A stretch of 32,845 bases of DNA from Promethearchaeota archaeon (GCA_048939625.1 JBHLPH010000020.1:1-32845), one strand, 5' to 3'. Positions 3,525-19,829 are shown, numbered from the stretch's first letter. Program-made: numbers and translations. Notes: generated from the letters alone by a model not told the origin.

Positions 3525-5192
3525 TCATTGACCCATTTTTGGCAGCCAATCCGCAAGAATCTGAAATTCAAAGGCCACACAAGGTGCTTCAATTCCATAA
3601 TTGTGTAAGACAGCAGGATGAATTTCACCAAGTAACCCAAGGCGTTGCCTGCTAATGGTAATATTAGCAACTCGCCCTTTGATGAATGAAGGATGTGAAG
3701 CTTTTGTAACCTTCCCTTTTAGACCAAGGTTGGCTAGTAATGTGAGCAATTCTGCTTTGAGGGCTGTGATATCTACGCGTGAATTAACAATTGCCGCTGC
3801 GAGATTATGAACCGTGTCTGTGCACGTTTCAGCTTGTGGATTCACTTTCACAACTGAACCTAATTCGAACACGCGATGAGGTAGTTCTTGAGCTGTATTT
3901 TCTCCCAAGAAAGCTAAGAGTCCAGGTAGCAACTTGTTACGGGCAAGATGATATTCCATTGATTTGGGATTTGCAATTTCTACAACAGCTTTTTTCGACA
4001 GATTCATCTTCTCAAAGAACACACGGCTGTTGGTTAGAACATAGTTGGTAATTTCTTGATACCCAAGACCTACCATAAGATCACGGATGGTACGTAGCAT
4101 GGTGGTCATGGGAAGTTCTTGTCCAACAGTCATCGTTTGAGGAAGTTCGGGTTCAATTCGATTATATCCGTATCCAATCGCTACATCTTCGATGATATCA
4201 ACGTCGTGGAGGATGTCGACTCGGTAGGCAGGAATGCCAACATGAATAGTTGTTTGATCATGTTTGGCATCCATTCGCATTCTTTTAAGAGCGCGAATGA
4301 TTGCTGGACCACCGAAGTCATAACCAATTGTTCTATTAATGCGGTCTATCGAAACCTCACGTGGTGTTAATGCAAGATTAGGCAATGATTCACGGTGAGT
4401 CGGATAAACAACCTCAACCTCCTCCAATGTCCCTCCTCTCTCCGCTAAGGCGGTAATAACGATATTTAGAGATTGAAGTGCAGTTTGCTTGTGCGTTCCC
4501 GTAACTTCGACAAACACATCTTTTGTCGTTATCAACAACCGACCCAAATCATTACTGTTAATGACAGGGGGTAAACTGAGAACCTTCCCTTCAGCATCGA
4601 CTAAGAGAGGATAACGGGGATGATCTTTGATAATACCTCCGAATTCCTGACCTTTGGGATGATTGCGTAATATCTGTTTTGCAGTGAGTTCCTTATGAAA
4701 TTCTAGGGGTACAAAATGGATGGCATCAGGGAGTTCGGTTCGATAATAAATTGGAGGTGTTATGAGGTCCAGAACATAAAGTCCAATGCTGGTTCGTTTC
4801 CGATTTCGGCCGAAAGTGCTAGTAAGACGTTCTTGGAGTTGCATAAATTCAGCGATTAGGTCATCATCAAGGGTAAGTCCACGGATAATCCCACAGGCAA
4901 GAAAAGGTCGTATCTTTTCCACCGATTTATCAACAATAGCCTGCCATTTGGATTTTTTAATGGGGAATTTTGGTGCTCCGGTTTCGATTTCTAAGAATCC
5001 TTTTAGCGCACGAGCAATGCCCTCGGTAGAGAGCATATCTACTCGATCGGGATTGACCTCAATGGTAGCAACACCATCGTCTATGCGATCTATTTCACAT
5101 TTGATTAAGAACAAGTTTTCTTCTAGTTCTTCAAGGGAGAGGTCTTTTCCGATTAAGTTTTGAAGATCTGTAATGCGTACTTCGACATTCAT
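3525..5192 (-). CDS. pheT: Phenylalanine--tRNA ligase beta subunit (archaeal/eukaryotic type)
   Basis: NPDRVDMLSTEGIAR, RVDILHDVDIIEDVAIGYGY, GEIHP. Start placed at ATG 5192 behind a GAGGTGA Shine-Dalgarno. Confidence 0.96.
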   Translation of the reverse strand: MNVEVRITDLQNLIGKDLSLEELEENLFLIKCEIDRIDDGVATIEVNPDRVDMLSTEGIARALKGFLEIETGAPKFPIKKSKWQAIVDKSVEKIRPFLACGIIRGLTLDDDLIAEFMQLQERLTSTFGRNRKRTSIGLYVLDLITPPIYYRTELPDAIHFVPLEFHKELTAKQILRNHPKGQEFGGIIKDHPRYPLLVDAEGKVLSLPPVINSNDLGRLLITTKDVFVEVTGTHKQTALQSLNIVITALAERGGTLEEVEVVYPTHRESLPNLALTPREVSIDRINRTIGYDFGGPAIIRALKRMRMDAKHDQTTIHVGIPAYRVDILHDVDIIEDVAIGYGYNRIEPELPQTMTVGQELPMTTMLRTIRDLMVGLGYQEITNYVLTNSRVFFEKMNLSKKAVVEIANPKSMEYHLARNKLLPGLLAFLGENTAQELPHRVFELGSVVKVNPQAETCTDTVHNLAAAIVNSRVDITALKAELLTLLANLGLKGKVTKASHPSFIKGRVANITISRQRLGLLGEIHPAVLHNYGIEAPCVAFEFQILADWLPKMGQ

Positions 5193-13972: not shown

Positions 13973-14073
13973 GCAAAGCACCTTGATATCCGAGCTGTTT
14001 ACTAGAACAGATACATATCTTTAAGCTTGCCCCGACAACCAAATTCCATGTTAAGGATTTTCTTATAGGTATT

Positions 14074-15384
14074 TCATGGTTGAATCCGACTTGGTGTGCG
14101 CGGGAATAAACAGGCTTCCCGGATATGATTCAATTTTAACAACCACACAAGAAACCGTTCCAAGCCCATACCAAACCCTGAATGCGGGGGAAGTCCGAAT
14201 TTCCGTAATTCCAGATACCAGTCATAAGCTGAAGGATCGAGCTTTTCATCCTTAATTCGCTTTAATAATAAGTCTAAATCATGAATGCGTTGCCCACCAC
14301 TTGTCAATTCTCCATAACCTTCAGGAGCAATTAAATCGCTACTTAGGGTAATCTCAGGTCTTTCGGGGTCAGGCATATGGTAGAAAGATCGCGCTACTGT
14401 TGGATACCCAGTGATGAAAAAAGGGTCTTTGAATTGTTGTGATACTGCCCGTTCGGCTTCCGTGCCTAAATCCTGTCCCCAAGGAACCTTAAATCCAGCC
14501 TTACTCGCGATTTTAATCGCTTCATCATAGGAAACTCGTTTAAAGGGTAATTTGGGTAATCGTACTCTCACCTTCAGAATGTCCAGCTGATGTTGGCAAT
14601 GCTCTTTGATATACGAAACCATGGCATGAACAAGCCGTTCTTCAACACCCATGATATCCTCATGTGTTCCAAAAAGAATTTCTGATTCCAAGTGCCAATA
14701 CTCAGTTAAATGACGTCGCGTGCGATGTTTTTCTGCGCGAAAACTAGGTGAAAGCAAGTAAACCTTTTCTAGCCCACAAATGGCGGCTTCTTCATAAAGT
14801 TGGGCACTTTGACTTAGATAGGCAGTCCCACCGAAATACTTGAATGGAAATAAAGTCGCGCCCCCCTCAACACTCGCACCCACCATAACAGGAGGAAAGA
14901 TCTCTGTGAATCCTTCACCATCAAAGAATTGGTGAGCTGCACGGCTTATCCCAGCTTTGATTTGCATAATCGCGGTTTGGCTGGGACTCCGCAGGTATAG
15001 ATGTCTTTTATCAAATAGAAATGCGTCCCCGGCATCCTTTTCCAAGGGCCAATCCGAATCAGCGAGATTTACAATTTCGAATCGAGTCACCCTTAACTCG
15101 ATACCTGAAGGTGCACGTTTATCTATGGCGATCGTACCCGAAACAATAATGGAGGATTCCAAGGTGACCTCTTGCATCGCCGAAAAAGCCTCGGGCGCTA
15201 GTTCACGATGCCCCGCAGCTTGAATCACTCCGGTTGGATCACGCACAATGATAAAGATAACTCCACCATGTTCACGTTTTCGATGCACCCATCCTGTCAT
15301 CGTCACCAACGCGCCTTCCATGGAGGCGCTCAGTTCAGTCACATAATGCGTTTTTCCAAATGTTTTGAGCACTTTATCAGACAC
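14074..15384 (-). CDS. asnS: Asparagine--tRNA ligase (class IIb)
   Basis: N-terminal OB anticodon domain; VEGGATLF, LSQSAQLYEE (no AspRS-type QLYKQ Lys), FRAEKHRTRRHLTEYWHLESE, APEGYGE and PHSGFGMGLER. GTG start inferred from the SD. Confidence 0.85.
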   Translation of the reverse strand: MSDKVLKTFGKTHYVTELSASMEGALVTMTGWVHRKREHGGVIFIIVRDPTGVIQAAGHRELAPEAFSAMQEVTLESSIIVSGTIAIDKRAPSGIELRVTRFEIVNLADSDWPLEKDAGDAFLFDKRHLYLRSPSQTAIMQIKAGISRAAHQFFDGEGFTEIFPPVMVGASVEGGATLFPFKYFGGTAYLSQSAQLYEEAAICGLEKVYLLSPSFRAEKHRTRRHLTEYWHLESEILFGTHEDIMGVEERLVHAMVSYIKEHCQHQLDILKVRVRLPKLPFKRVSYDEAIKIASKAGFKVPWGQDLGTEAERAVSQQFKDPFFITGYPTVARSFYHMPDPERPEITLSSDLIAPEGYGELTSGGQRIHDLDLLLKRIKDEKLDPSAYDWYLELRKFGLPPHSGFGMGLERFLVWLLKLNHIREACLFPRTPSRIQP

Positions 15385-15435
15385 ACTAGGTCCCACCAAA
15401 GACGGAGAACACCAAAATCAGAATAACGGTTGTGG

Positions 15436-15981
15436 TTAAGAGGATTGTGCTACACGCCGACGAATATACTCAAGCATCTCTTTCGCAATGAATTCAAAGG
15501 CTGGCGTCACGTTCAAATCATCCTTAGAACTGGTTTCAAAATATGCCTTAAACCCATTCGCCTTTGCAAACTGAATCACTTCTTTCTGATCCACCGCACG
15601 ATGCAAATCTGCTTTCATCCCAATCAAAATAATCGGAATCTCATCGGTATTCTCACGAACCAGCTTCAGCCACTCATCTAGCTTTAAAAACGTACTAAAT
15701 CGATTTAGATCAAAACATAACATCGCCCCACGTGCACCAAAACAAAACTTCGGTAACAAAAATCGAAACCGCTTTTCCCCGCCAAAATCCCAAATCTGGG
15801 CTTTAATGGGAGTGGATCCGTGTCCGTCGTTGACGATTAGTTTTTTAGCAGCGAAGGCTGTGCCCACAGTGAGGATTGAATCATGGTAGACGCCTTCGAC
15901 GTAGCGTCGTATCATGGTGGTTTTGCCGACGCCGCCTTCTCCGGCAACGACGAGTTTGAGCATGATACCTTCGTCTTCCAC
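15436..15981 (-). CDS. Rab/Ras-superfamily small GTPase (Asgard type)
   Basis: G1 GEGGVGKT, G2 TVG, G3 WDFGGE, G4 GMKAD, G5 ETSSK; no C-terminal Cys. Confidence 0.93.
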   Translation of the reverse strand: MEDEGIMLKLVVAGEGGVGKTTMIRRYVEGVYHDSILTVGTAFAAKKLIVNDGHGSTPIKAQIWDFGGEKRFRFLLPKFCFGARGAMLCFDLNRFSTFLKLDEWLKLVRENTDEIPIILIGMKADLHRAVDQKEVIQFAKANGFKAYFETSSKDDLNVTPAFEFIAKEMLEYIRRRVAQSS

Positions 15982-16145
15982 AGTGTTGCGCTTCCACTTC
16001 GTCCGTTTTTCATCTGTCAGTTAGAGTGAGAATAGAAAAACTGTTCGGTGAGAATAATCTTTGAATGTTTTTATCGAGGTTGATTCACAAGTTTTTTCTG
16101 TTGCGTAACTGTCTGTAAGCAGTACGGTCTGTGTGGTGTGTGAGC

Positions 16146-16679
16146 GTGAAGCGTGTTTCTGTTGTACCGAGTCGGTGTACTGGATGTCGGGTCTGTGAGT
16201 TGGTGTGTAGTGAAACCCATGAGGGTAGGTTTCAGCCGAGTAAAGCCCGGATTCAGGTTGTGTCGTTTGATATGACGGTGCAGGATGTGCCGATTGTGTG
16301 TCAGCAGTGTGCGGATGCTCCTTGTATGGAGGCGTGCCCGCAGGATGCGATTTCACGGAGTTCGGAGACCACAGCAGTAGTGGTAGATCAGGAGTTATGC
16401 ATTCAGTGTGGGGCTTGTGTTCGGGCGTGTGTGATTGGTCTCGATAAGATTGAACCGGATAAGAAGTTAGCAATTCGCTTGGATGCGGAGAAGGAAATGC
16501 CATTGAAATGTGATTTGTGTGGGGGCGATCCGCAGTGTGTGAAGTTTTGTCCGACGGAGGCCTTGGTGTTGACTGAAACCGCAGTGAAAGGGGAATTTTC
16601 GGTTGAAATGCTGATGGAGGCCCTAGACCATTTCATCAAGCAGACCGAGCTTCCCTTACCAGAGAAGGAGCGTGATTAG
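16146..16679 (+). CDS. 4Fe-4S dicluster protein (electron-transfer subunit for AOR)
   Basis: Four Cys groups: CTGCRVCELVC, CQQCADAPCMEACP, CIQCGACVRAC, CDLCGGDPQCVKFCP; overlaps the aor start. Confidence 0.92.
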   Translation: MKRVSVVPSRCTGCRVCELVCSETHEGRFQPSKARIQVVSFDMTVQDVPIVCQQCADAPCMEACPQDAISRSSETTAVVVDQELCIQCGACVRACVIGLDKIEPDKKLAIRLDAEKEMPLKCDLCGGDPQCVKFCPTEALVLTETAVKGEFSVEMLMEALDHFIKQTELPLPEKERD

Positions 16680-18594
16680 GGTGTATAAGGGTTATAGCGG
16701 GAAGATTCTTCGCGTTAATCTTACCAACCAGAAAGTCAGTATGGAACCGACATCAAAGGATCTAGCACGGCGTTTTATTGGGGGAACAGGGTATGCGAGT
16801 TATTTGCTGTATCATGAATTAGCCAAGGGTCTTGATCCCTTTAGCTCTGAGAATAAACTTATTTTCTGTACCGGTCCTGCGACGGGAACAGTGTGGCCAA
16901 CAGCGGGACGGATGGCGGTTGTGAGTAAATCCCCGCTTACTGGTATTTGGGCTGAAAGTCATGTGGGCGGGCATTTGGGTCCGGAACTAAAGTTTGCAGG
17001 CTATGACTTTGTAATCCTTGAGGGGGAGGCCAAACAGCGGACCGTGCTGTCAATTGTTGACGAAGAAATTCAGTTTCATTCGGGAGCCCCCTATTGGGGG
17101 CTTAAAACGCTAAAGGCTGCGCAATCGATGCGTCGCGATTTGGGGCAACAACATGGTCATGTCGCGGTTATTGGACCAGCAGGGGAAAACCTCGTTCGAT
17201 TTTCCTCGATTATGATTGATGGGGCACGAGCTGCCGGAAGAACTGGATTAGGAGCCGTGATGGGTCAAAAGAAACTAAAAGGCATATTGGTGCGGGGAAC
17301 AGGCAGCGTCACTGTCGCAGATCCTGAGCGATTCCAAAAGTTATGGCGTGATGGACATGAACGCGTGCAGACCAATCCTCAAGCGCTTGAAATGCGCAAG
17401 TATGGCACCGCAATATTGGTTGCAACCAAGCAGAGTATTGGTGAACTGCCTACATTTAACCATCGCGAAGGGGTGTACGAGGGATGGGACCGCATATCCG
17501 CTGAAACATTTCACGATCATTATTATCATACAACGCGGGCCTGTGGAACCTGTCGTCTAGCCTGTAAGAAAGCCTTCAAGGTCGACAAAGGCTCTCATAA
17601 GGGACTCATCACCGAAGGACCCGAATATGAGGGGATCATGGCGATGGGAAGTAATGTCGGAATCGATGATGTTCCCACAATCCTTGTTACCCAGCATCTT
17701 TGTAATGAATATGGGATGGATGTTATTAGTGCTGGCGCAACAGCTGCATTTCTAATGGAATTAGCAGAGAATGGATTGTTAACTGAAGAGGAACTTGCGA
17801 AGCTTGATCTTCGGTGGGGAAACACGGAAGCGCTAATTGCGCTAATACATGAAATTGCCCAACGTAAGGGACTTGGTGACCTGGCAGCAGAAGGAAGTCA
17901 TCGTATTGCTCTGCAGAAAGGTGAAACTGCACAACCCTTCGATATGACCGTAAAAGGGATGGAGATTTCGGGTCAAGACGGGAGAGCCCATCGATCTATG
18001 GCTTTAGGTCATGCTGTTGCCGCTCGAGGAGCAGATCACCTTCGGAACTTGGTCACCATGGATCAGTTAGCGTACAAGGATGTAGCTGCCGAAAGATTCG
18101 GTGAAGATAAACTTCCAGAAATCTGCGATCCCTATGTTGAAACGCATAAAGCTCTTGCAACAGTTGTAACCGAGAAAGTCTATACAATTCGGGATAGTTT
18201 GATTGTGTGCTGGTATACATGTTCATGGCCACCGATTTTTTGGGTTGAAGACTTTGCTCCTATGCTTGCGGCAGTCACAGGCGAGTCAGCTTTTGATAAT
18301 GTGGATGAATTAATGCGCATAGGGGCCCGGTTGGTTACCATGAAACGTGCTTTCAATGTTCGTGAAGGGATTCGACGAAGAGATGACCAATTACCTCGCC
18401 GTTTCACCGATGAACCGATTCCTAAAGGACCAAGTAAAGGGCAAACCGTGACGCTGGAGCCCATGCTTGATGAATACTATCAACTCTACGGTTGGGATGT
18501 CAAAACAGGAATTCCAACTGAAGCTACACTCCAGAAGCTGGGGCTGGATGAGATTGCCAAGGATCTGCGTTCGGAGGGAGTCTATTCTTCCTAG
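16672..18594 (+). CDS. aor: Tungsten-containing aldehyde:ferredoxin oxidoreductase family
   Basis: GYSGKILRVNLT, KSPLTG, AAGRTGLGAVMGQKKLK, CGTCRLAC, EGPEYE, RGADH, MLDEYYQLYGWD. Confidence 0.93.
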   Translation: MIRVYKGYSGKILRVNLTNQKVSMEPTSKDLARRFIGGTGYASYLLYHELAKGLDPFSSENKLIFCTGPATGTVWPTAGRMAVVSKSPLTGIWAESHVGGHLGPELKFAGYDFVILEGEAKQRTVLSIVDEEIQFHSGAPYWGLKTLKAAQSMRRDLGQQHGHVAVIGPAGENLVRFSSIMIDGARAAGRTGLGAVMGQKKLKGILVRGTGSVTVADPERFQKLWRDGHERVQTNPQALEMRKYGTAILVATKQSIGELPTFNHREGVYEGWDRISAETFHDHYYHTTRACGTCRLACKKAFKVDKGSHKGLITEGPEYEGIMAMGSNVGIDDVPTILVTQHLCNEYGMDVISAGATAAFLMELAENGLLTEEELAKLDLRWGNTEALIALIHEIAQRKGLGDLAAEGSHRIALQKGETAQPFDMTVKGMEISGQDGRAHRSMALGHAVAARGADHLRNLVTMDQLAYKDVAAERFGEDKLPEICDPYVETHKALATVVTEKVYTIRDSLIVCWYTCSWPPIFWVEDFAPMLAAVTGESAFDNVDELMRIGARLVTMKRAFNVREGIRRRDDQLPRRFTDEPIPKGPSKGQTVTLEPMLDEYYQLYGWDVKTGIPTEATLQKLGLDEIAKDLRSEGVYSS

Positions 18595-18617: not shown

Positions 18618-19829
18618 TTAGGTAATAACACCCATAAGGCGAGCCCTTAATTCTCCAATAAAAAGCCGAGAGAGGAGCCGAAGGGGATTTCGCTTCATAC
18701 GGTAATAATCAGTAAGCCCTCTAGCAATATCAAAAGCCAGTTGACCTGGCCACTTCATCAAGCGAGCAAGGCGGAATCCTCCATATAGGTGTGCGTGTAC
18801 TAATCGCATGATAAACCAGCTGCATTGAAGTTCCTTTCCAAACCGTTGAGTAACCCGTCGTTGATACTGAGTAGCAGCCTGAGTTAGTGAATGATTACCC
18901 TGAATGATATTAGTTGCTGTTTGAGCGCAAATGATTCCGCCTTCAAGTGCATAGCAAATTCCTTGTCCACTAAATACGTCAATAAATCCTGCTGCATCAC
19001 CTATGAGGAAAACGCGATGATTGGAAAGTGGAATTGGTGATTCAAATATGGGTAATTGATGGCCGCGTAGGCGTTTTAATTTGAAAAGAGGAAGCTGATG
19101 CCATGAACAAAACATCCGCGTTAGCCCTCTTAGTAAATTGGGAACATTGCCCAGCTCACTGGCAATTCCTCCAACACCGATGGACAGACTAGCTTTGCGT
19201 GGAAAGACCCAGAAATAGCCCTTTGGAATATTGAGGAGCCAAAGTACAAGTAGGGAAGGATCAAGAGTTTGATTCCAAATTTTTTTAGAGATTTGAACTT
19301 CTGTTTCAACTGCAATTCCTATTTCGTGTGCCTTCATGGGTTTACGAAGATTTGTAAGAAATCCAACACGAGATGTTGCCCCATCAGCTCCAATGACAAG
19401 TTTTCCTGTAAATTCTCCTTTATCAGTATGGCACTCTACGAAACCTTCATGCTGTTCAAGATTTGCTAGAGTACAATTTTGTGTAAAATCAGCGCCTGCT
19501 TTTACTGCCTGTTGGGCTAAGTAATAATCAAAGATTTCACGTTTCACAGTATAAGCAAAGAGGTCCCTTGAGCGATATTCGAAAGGCTTCATTTCAGGAC
19601 CCATAAATTGAAACCCAAAAATGGGTTGTTCAGTGAGAGAAGTTGGAACATGAATCCCTGCGAATTGGAGCGCCTTTAAGGAACGGATTGAGAGGGCACC
19701 ACCACATGGTTTGACTCGGGGAAACTGGGCCTTATCAACAAGAAGGGTGTGAAGACCAGCTTCTGCACATCTGTATGCAGTCATAGAGCCAGCAGGTCCT
19801 GCGCCAATGACGATGACATCATAATCCAT
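18618..19829 (-). CDS. Geranylgeranyl reductase-family FAD oxidoreductase
   Basis: VIGAGPAGS, KPCGG, IGADGATS, GYFWVFP, LIGDAAG and GQGICYA. Confidence 0.9.
   Translation of the reverse strand: MDYDVIVIGAGPAGSMTAYRCAEAGLHTLLVDKAQFPRVKPCGGALSIRSLKALQFAGIHVPTSLTEQPIFGFQFMGPEMKPFEYRSRDLFAYTVKREIFDYYLAQQAVKAGADFTQNCTLANLEQHEGFVECHTDKGEFTGKLVIGADGATSRVGFLTNLRKPMKAHEIGIAVETEVQISKKIWNQTLDPSLLVLWLLNIPKGYFWVFPRKASLSIGVGGIASELGNVPNLLRGLTRMFCSWHQLPLFKLKRLRGHQLPIFESPIPLSNHRVFLIGDAAGFIDVFSGQGICYALEGGIICAQTATNIIQGNHSLTQAATQYQRRVTQRFGKELQCSWFIMRLVHAHLYGGFRLARLMKWPGQLAFDIARGLTDYYRMKRNPLRLLSRLFIGELRARLMGVIT

Follow-up and report, generated by a model that had tools for sequence, protein, structure and literature searches.

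A conserved, point-centered switch of strand composition inside a small GTPase gene of a Promethearchaeota archaeon, and its possible origin in recurrent breakage

Introduction

A stretch of 32,845 nucleotides from a Promethearchaeota archaeon (GCA_048939625.1, JBHLPH010000020.1:1-32845; the whole stretch is called the window) carries a gene for a Ras/Rab-like small GTPase in which the silent-site composition of the two DNA strands inverts at a single point, the pivot, between codons 61 and 62. The analysis bears this footprint out: it is fixed to one site, follows the DNA strand, extends in both directions and weakens with distance. Two genera have it although silent sites between them are saturated, and it belongs to a genome-wide class of marks with strict polarity. 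The switch is best read as a mutational scar, neither a coding nor a regulatory signal, and the cause that we tentatively prefer, with a probability of roughly 40%, is a recurrent, bidirectional, strand-asymmetric DNA process at a fixed site, namely a break or nick followed by outward re-synthesis.

The window is contig C78 of a metagenome-assembled genome (MAG; G000) of 2.31 Mb in 83 contigs, with a GC content of 44.6%, a completeness of 88% and a contamination of 6%. Its class is represented in the genome collection by 19 species of two genera.

The switch within the GTPase gene

The features of the locus, in window coordinates, are as follows.

14074-15399, minus strand: gene for a class II aminoacyl-tRNA synthetase (aaRS) of the Asp/Asn type (Pfam tRNA-synt_2)
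15436-15981, minus strand: Ras/Rab-like small GTPase gene (181 aa, GTG start), which holds the pivot (Pfam Ras, PF00071, E = 3e-34; 17 orthologues)
15454-15796: left arm, with the plus strand A/C-rich and the coding (minus) strand G/T-rich (75-78%) at silent sites (hidden Markov model, HMM; plus-strand G/T fraction 0.22)
15796-15799: pivot between codons 61 and 62 (K-A/Q-I-W-D), from the maximum-likelihood (ML) change point and the HMM junction 15796/15799; refined position 15797
15799-16983: right arm, with the plus strand G/T-rich (76%) at silent sites (HMM segment)
15982-16145: spacer between the divergent GTPase and ferredoxin genes, with the skew sign of the patch (keto +0.27)
16146-16679, plus strand: 4Fe-4S dicluster ferredoxin gene (Pfam Fer4 families)
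16672-18594, plus strand: aldehyde:ferredoxin oxidoreductase (AOR) gene (Pfam AFOR_N and AFOR_C), of which the patch covers only the first ~100 codons

Third positions of GTPase codons 1-61 comprise 31 C, 17 A, 9 T and 4 G (79% C/A), and those of the next 70 codons 30 T, 27 G, 11 A and 2 C (Fisher P = 6.5e-11 for C-ending codons); after the codon 61/62 boundary (nt 15798/15799) they are 75% G/T. These exact counts agree with the hand count in a first-pass annotation of this DNA, which had reported 31 C-ending codons among the first 61 and 2 among the next 70. The ML change point of the keto (G/T) state falls after codon 61 (nt 15799), three codons ahead of the G3-motif Trp, and raises the log-likelihood by 25.5; among 20,000 within-gene permutations the best gain was 12.7, and none reached the observed value. 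Because third positions genome-wide favor T and A, with G the rarest base, both halves of the gene are abnormal, in opposite directions.

The concern that the change in skew might be no larger than at random positions can be set aside, as the jump of 1.18 at the pivot is the largest in the 2.3-Mb genome when 100 third positions to either side are compared. The GTPase gene ranks seventh among 2066 open reading frames (ORFs) for its change point, although it is the shortest in the top group. When all positions are counted in 400-bp windows, the jump is 0.465 (single-window standard deviation, 0.089), about sixth to eighth genome-wide. Across the pivot the keto skew of the plus strand goes from -0.30 to +0.36, and its GC skew from -0.29 (15400-15799) to +0.35/+0.38 (16000-16599).

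Patches of skewed composition were called by a three-state HMM on plus-strand third positions. From the antisense of GTPase codons 1-61 the right arm runs across the spacer and the ferredoxin gene into roughly the first 100 codons of AOR, and its profile in 300-nt bins falls from +0.64 through +0.62, +0.38 and +0.32 to +0.04. Both the fade over 1-1.5 kb and the continuation of the G/T bias through the spacer and the plus-strand ferredoxin gene had been described in the first-pass annotation, and both hold. The spacer (62 T, 42 G, 35 A, 25 C) is less skewed than the adjoining silent sites, and the ferredoxin gene is the most G/T-rich ORF of the genome at third positions, with a third-position keto skew (keto3) of +0.54 versus a genome mean of -0.02 (standard deviation, 0.13). 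On the opposite side, the aaRS gene forms a weak outer tail of the left arm, with a plus-strand keto3 of -0.10 to -0.32 near the 3' end of the gene.

Strand dependence and a genome-wide class of marks

That the bias tracks the DNA strand and not the direction of genes, as had been proposed, is evident at this locus, where it crosses a gene start, a spacer and an opposite-strand gene and, in the sister genus, enters a same-strand gene. The same holds across the genome: when neighboring genes lie on one strand their coding-strand keto3 values correlate at +0.31, and when they diverge, at -0.31; ten patches include genes pointing both ways; and of 24 embedded spacers, 21 have the skew sign of their patch. 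A slight shift in the patch direction is also present at codon positions 1 and 2.

The HMM called 75 G/T and 53 A/C patches, of a median length of about 440 bp and occupying 3.1% of the genome, with 11 direct A/C-to-G/T junctions against 2 of the reverse polarity. The third-position scan gave the following counts.

Jump threshold 0.8: A/C to G/T, 20; G/T to A/C, 0; shuffled, 0
Jump threshold 0.7: A/C to G/T, 33; G/T to A/C, 3; shuffled, 0
Jump threshold 0.6: A/C to G/T, 62; G/T to A/C, 18; shuffled, 2-3

The GTPase switch is one of some 20-60 marks of the same polarity in this genome, and the similar pivots that the first-pass annotation had suggested counting number 20 at a jump of at least 0.8, all of one polarity. 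The mean profile of these 20 sharp pivots steps from -0.40 to +0.60 and reaches zero by about 2 kb on each side. They lie in ORFs in 19 cases, as expected from a coding density of 89%, and follow no rule of gene orientation, occurring in gene middles and between convergent as well as divergent pairs; GC within 100 nt of them ranges from 0.37 to 0.58. In 72% of patch bases, annotated genes have the G-rich strand as their template.

Several other pivots also fall at conserved protein motifs, including WCGPC of thioredoxin, DPCxxC of hydrogenase, CxxCxxC of ferredoxin and PAEIE of the ANL acyl-CoA synthetases. Two further GTPase paralogues switch at most 6 codons from the equivalent Trp, and two porB paralogues switch 7 codons apart. 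By rough estimates, such coincidences would arise by chance with probabilities of about 0.02 (GTPases) and 0.06 (porB), which is suggestive but not proof; the closest GTPase paralogues (on C71 and C49) show no switch.

No ORF of the genome is more extreme than a GTPase gene with an N-terminal extension of ~190 aa (C38:1871-2791; keto3 -0.75), in which C or A fills about 87% of third positions along nearly the entire gene; it is conserved in five further species. Housekeeping genes that are presumed to be highly expressed (proteasome alpha, Spt5, porA and the hydrogenase large subunit) have strongly C/A-ending codons, and translational selection and strand patches are confounded across the genome.

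Conservation across species

All 14 other species of the genus have the GTPase locus in collinear arrangement, with 70-80% identity. A change point was found at codons 59-64 in 10 of the 17 orthologues scanned, and in 11 of 18 once a fourth sister-genus species (G016) was added, where the value at the G3 motif rises from 0.23 to 0.64. In four more species (L006 and the G002/G004/G005 clade) it lies at codons 40-53; the switch is weak or shifted in L009 and L016 and absent in L010. The suggestion that orthologues might switch at the same codon is thereby upheld in two genera. In five other species the left arm at the pivot has a G/T fraction of 0.75-0.87 and the right arm 0.62-0.79, each on the same strand, and orthologous spacers have keto values of +0.12 to +0.35. 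Codons 64-82, beside the pivot, are nearly invariant in 17 species.

In the sister genus the synteny of the GTPase gene, the aaRS gene and a winged helix-turn-helix gene is kept, while the upstream neighbor is a same-strand FAD oxidoreductase gene. All four sister-genus species switch even though they have no ferredoxin-AOR operon, and in two of three species the final 50 codons of the gene upstream have the right-arm sign (+0.4 and +0.5), which indicates that the right arm covers whatever DNA lies to its right. Four-fold-site identity between the genera is 0.29-0.37, versus 0.27-0.34 expected from composition, i.e., these sites are saturated. Because the pattern is nevertheless present in both genera, the mark must have been renewed, as a single old event would have been erased.

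Substitution pattern in the patches

Codons of G000 (11,397 in all, from five patch-rich regions and this locus) were aligned with those of five other species, the patches being defined on G000. The same-strand G/T fraction in the other species is 0.61-0.78 within these patches and 0.51-0.54 outside, and in the strongest patches it is about 0.8 or more in all species. At four-fold sites the G-rich strand of patches has 51% G, 25% T, 18% A and 6.5% C, compared with 20/30/30/20 at neutral sites. The mark consists chiefly of added G, at the expense of C and A, and GC3 is higher. This composition also implies a past excess of C>T, as the T:C ratio is 3.8 versus 1.5.

Recent changes were counted by majority rule among the close species G002, G004 and G005 at synonymous third positions (2028 patch sites), giving the following rates per site on the G-rich strand.

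C>T: patch 0.260, neutral 0.251
T>C: patch 0.153, neutral 0.148
G>A: patch 0.257, neutral 0.251
A>G: patch 0.267, neutral 0.148 (1.8-fold, n = 116)

Because T>C and G>A proceed at neutral rates, G and T have no protection, which speaks against selection or a fixation bias; the unraised rate of C>T speaks against a steady deamination of cytosine. Changes within patches number 227 toward keto and 312 toward amino, and the total rate is 0.311 in patches versus 0.265 at neutral sites. In this clade the patches are decaying and not at equilibrium, and A>G on the G-rich strand is the sole standing asymmetry. A small sample from the GTPase locus alone agrees with the pooled rates. The pair G001/G007, with G000 as outgroup, was left out of these counts, since patches defined on G000 would tilt the outcome toward seeming decay.

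A proposed break or nick with outward re-synthesis

In the model that we prefer, the duplex would be broken or nicked recurrently at a fixed point in the DNA encoding the G3 motif (Q-I-W-D-x-G-G) and then copied anew outward in both directions over roughly 0.3-2 kb. The strand running 5' to 3' away from the break, re-made after resection, would gain G, keep T and lose C and A at weakly selected sites, while purifying selection would hold the protein sequence. Between episodes the patch would decay at the ordinary neutral rate, and the mark would last only where a site is hit repeatedly; this need for repeated hits would explain why long-lived marks are found in DNA held constant by conserved protein motifs. 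We infer a break or nick as the trigger; the G-rich strand would be the new strand, and the cutting agent might be of several kinds, a homing-type endonuclease being one candidate.

The polarity fits three geometries: strands re-made after 5' to 3' resection (the top strand on the right of a break and the bottom strand on the left), lagging-strand templates, and the non-template strands of divergent transcripts. Among these, a site-specific break or nick is favored by the intragenic sites at conserved motifs that are common to paralogues. It is also favored by the missing marks of an origin, the blank orc1/cdc6 loci and the variably present LAGLIDADG-like genes in the strongest patches. As in the targets of endonucleases, a conserved coding motif lies at the pivot, at a place that paralogues have in common. 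Free-standing LAGLIDADG-like genes are 56-67% within patches, compared with 3.1% for the genome, and are present only in some species of the genus. The genes concerned are listed here.

C19:4192-6051, C34:59555-61567, C38:255-1865, C61:17240-18841 and C61:18896-20659: free-standing LAGLIDADG-like or multi-helix-turn-helix genes, in the strongest patches

A considerable body of evidence weighs against this model. In the 18 orthologous loci no endonuclease gene, intein or insert lies at or beside the site, and nine longer homologues are only GTPases with extensions, with no intein or insert at the site, although the latter is weak evidence. The only nearby insert is an insertion sequence (IS) of the TnpB type, beside the gene in one species. 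LAGLIDADG intein borders provide one possible pivot (C36, ~18400) and none at two other inteins (C65 and C67). No k-mer common to the 20 pivots exceeds control (CAAAATC, in 6 of the 20 against a control 95th percentile of 5, is composition-biased), and the shared motif that the first-pass annotation had suggested looking for did not emerge. Canonical 5' to 3' resection exposes 3' tails, damage to which would produce a polarity contrary to that observed, and hence the model needs a nascent strand biased toward G, for which we know of no polymerase precedent. A Rev1-like, dCMP-inserting polymerase was rejected as the cause of the gain of G at the expense of A and C, as the single Y-family enzyme in the genome is of the DinB/Dpo4 type. 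The four-fold composition and raised A>G resemble single-strand damage of the kind known from the mitochondrial heavy strand and suit repair synthesis less well than an opening bubble. The skew of embedded spacers reaches only about a third of that at four-fold sites, and the joint decay of many patches in one clade suggests one trans-acting factor and not many site-specific nucleases.

Two other observations concern LAGLIDADG-bearing genes. The LAGLIDADG-like and multi-helix-turn-helix genes in patches have an amino acid composition bent by the skew, being rich in T/H/P/Q or in G/V/F/L. An intein-bearing gene of 1693 aa (C36:17605-22683) contains two A/C-to-G/T switches (~18400 and ~20000), one of them near the LAGLIDADG domain.

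Alternative explanations

A possible, though doubtful, alternative is an origin-like opening, i.e., a non-canonical, dormant or abortive start of bidirectional unwinding or synthesis at which the displaced lagging-strand template collects deamination and depurination damage. The 20:0 polarity is exactly that of lagging-strand templates, the profile has a sharp center and decays outward, and the joint decay of patches in one clade would fit a change in a general replication or repair factor. The composition (G far above C, T above A, C rarest) and the A>G excess match components of mitochondrial single-strand damage (PMC11792237), and the gradient with distance expected from such damage is present (+0.60/-0.40 to about 0 at 2 kb); however, a recent excess of C>T is lacking. 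None of the hallmarks of an Orc1/Cdc6 origin, an adjacent orc1/cdc6 or whiP initiator gene, an origin recognition box (ORB) with an AT-rich element, or replichore-scale skew, was found. Contig C78 has no orc1/cdc6 gene, Cdc6_C matches occurring only on C28 (two places) and C12, and the flanks of those three loci show no such pivot. Only short two-copy chance repeats, and nothing ORB-like, were seen in 15000-16700, as the first-pass annotation had noted for the surroundings of the pivot. There is no AT-rich unwinding tract near 15798, where GC within 100 nt is 0.46 and the sequence is coding; the location of pivots inside ORFs is no rarer than chance; plus-strand keto3 correlations are at most 0.05 beyond 6 kb; and the cumulative skew over the contig, a quantity to which the annotation had pointed, has its extremes at 4623 and 18621 and no minimum at the pivot. 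An initiator would, in addition, need to recognize conserved coding motifs, those of paralogues included. Of the origin analogy drawn at first, the fixed point inside a gene with diverging, origin-type polarity stands, but a replication origin as such is not supported. The evidence is split between a break or nick and an origin-like opening, with about a quarter of the probability left for something not yet conceived.

Cryptic divergent transcription or R-loops from an internal promoter pair at the pivot, with damage to the non-template strands over 1-2 kb, would fit the polarity and the kilobase-scale decay, and this genome has a TTTAAT/ATTAAA box at the pivot. We consider it improbable, as the box is not conserved in orthologues (ATC AAG, GTA AAG, TTG AAG), pivots observe no rule of gene orientation, the G-rich strand is mostly the template strand of annotated genes, and no RNA family matches the locus. 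Selection on silent sites, for mRNA structure, translation speed or a polar DNA signal that needs an A/C-rich 5' part and a G/T-rich 3' part, could account for a switch at the equivalent protein motif in orthologues and some paralogues, for two-fold codon choices that are nearly fixed across 17 species, and for spacers that are less skewed than four-fold sites. It is very unlikely in view of the neutral rates of T>C and G>A in decaying patches, of a bias that crosses gene starts, spacers and genes of either orientation, and of the closest paralogues, which do not switch; nor is there a general 5' ramp, third-position composition being flat from codon 11 to codon 300 in 1440 genes. That the locus is a mosaic, whether a chimeric assembly or a junction of DNA of differing composition formed by recombination or gene transfer, was a natural concern with a MAG of 6% contamination in which some contig ends carry duplicated gene ends (C52/C79), and misassembly and discordant halves had both been raised at the outset as ways in which the switch could prove spurious. 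Its chance is now close to negligible: at least 15 independently assembled species have the switch, the ORF and protein are continuous across the pivot, random junctions would yield both polarities and not 20:0, and distances computed from the half-genes correlate with each other (Spearman 0.79) and with those of the aaRS gene (0.69 and 0.85), with identical nearest relatives.

With regard to contig ends, the 3' part of porB at C52:3590-4570 is repeated almost identically at C79:289-714, which probably reflects assembly redundancy or strain variation.

The host gene and its surroundings

The translated GTPase contains G1 (GEGGVGKT), G3 (WDFGGE) and G4 (GMKAD) motifs and has the Ras-family profile, the P-loop and DxxG, without the catalytic Gln after DxxG and the Asn of NKxD; DFGGE and GMKAD occur in all orthologues of the genus. 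Judged from these motifs, the protein is an atypical member of the Ras superfamily. Having Glu at the position of the catalytic Gln, and GMKAD where NKxD is expected, it may hydrolyze GTP poorly or bind another nucleotide.

The first-pass annotation had drawn attention to a palindrome about 90 bp from the pivot.

15695-15708: perfect 14-bp palindrome CTAAATCGATTTAG, outside the feature and a by-product, through chance, of codons D-L-N-R-F-S

Its presence was verified, but it is irrelevant to the switch: palindromes of this kind number 2 in the window versus 2.46 in shuffles, only 1-2 of 17 orthologues have it, and it was rejected as part of the feature.

The ferredoxin gene likely starts at the GTG at 16146, as tblastn conservation among orthologues begins at residue 15 of the long ORF. 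In this genus the ferredoxin-AOR operon (16131-18594) lies between the GTPase gene and the FAD oxidoreductase gene (18618-19829), whereas in the sister-genus loci L011-L013 the GTPase and FAD oxidoreductase genes are adjacent, a difference that amounts to an operon-sized insertion or deletion. In G005 (L014:4061-4840) a 1.7-kb insert encoding a TnpB/IS605-OrfB-like protein with a zinc finger (CPRC...CQEC) separates the GTPase and aaRS genes, and a relative (L017) has a remnant of ~300 bp. An Rfam scan of 14000-18000 returned zero RNA families, and no tRNA genes occur across the window.

Long antisense ORFs overlie the ferredoxin gene (16021-16503, minus strand, 160 aa) and the GTPase gene (15430-15681, plus strand, 83 aa). 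They are most likely by-products of the skew, because strands poor in A or T carry few stop codons, and they could be miscalled as genes.

Significance

Strand-asymmetric composition is usually taken to operate at the scale of replichores or transcripts; here it is mirror-symmetric, on the scale of a kilobase and pinned to individual codons. Should the marks correspond to fixed sites at which DNA breaks or its synthesis begins, they would constitute a map of these sites, obtained from sequence only, in an uncultured lineage near the origin of eukaryotes, and would supply precise coordinates for testing replication and DNA repair in these archaea. A broader proposition, which we regard as unlikely, is that the pivots are sequence-defined, heritable starts of DNA synthesis or programmed breakage, dozens per 2.3 Mb and even inside genes. 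An Asgard archaeon would then have dense, eukaryote-like initiation or recombination hot spots, whose footprint can be read in silent sites. The marks also distort codon usage, amino acid composition and ORF calling, as the long antisense ORFs on skewed strands illustrate, and so can mimic gene transfer or misassembly in MAGs.

Comparison with known systems

No description of such a pattern in archaea was found in literature searches, and none of the nearest known patterns combines kilobase scale, mirror symmetry, intragenic fixed points shared across genera and dozens of sites per prokaryotic genome. Switches of skew mark the bacterial oriC and human origins, the latter as upward jumps. As at these origins, G/T-rich strands diverge from a point in the archaeal genome and only that polarity gives a sharp step; unlike them, the archaeal effect fades within about 2 kb instead of extending over a replichore, its sites are intragenic, the pivot has no initiator gene, ORB repeat or AT-rich tract, and the organism's own candidate Orc1/Cdc6 origins are unmarked.

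Asymmetry centered on transcription starts is known from human promoters and somatic hypermutation. Like the archaeal marks, it is a bias mirrored about a point and fading over 1-2 kb, but the archaeal point has no conserved promoter and is unrelated to the direction of annotated genes.

Double-strand breaks are surrounded by strand-coordinated mutation clusters and co-conversion tracts, as known from yeast, from cancer and from homing by LAGLIDADG endonucleases. Homing endonucleases, which are gained and lost over time, have conserved coding motifs as their targets. Break-centered clusters share with the archaeal marks kilobase tracts around a point and a strand bias that flips at the break, and LAGLIDADG-like genes reside in the strongest archaeal patches. 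They differ in that the polarity expected from damage to resected 3' tails is the reverse of the one seen, that the archaeal site has no associated endonuclease, intein or insert, and that the archaeal mark is an evolutionarily steady mark on silent sites and not the cluster left by a single event.

In vertebrate mitochondrial DNA, the asymmetry of the heavy and light strands stems from single-strand damage during asynchronous replication (PMC11792237). The archaeal marks are, by comparison, local (0.3-2 kb), mirrored about a point and present at dozens of sites within genes, and their patches are out of equilibrium, with recent C>T at an unraised rate. In both cases, four-fold sites are G/T-rich on one strand, where C is very rare, and A/C-rich on the other, where G is very rare; A>G is asymmetric on the G-rich strand, and the effect forms a gradient along the DNA.

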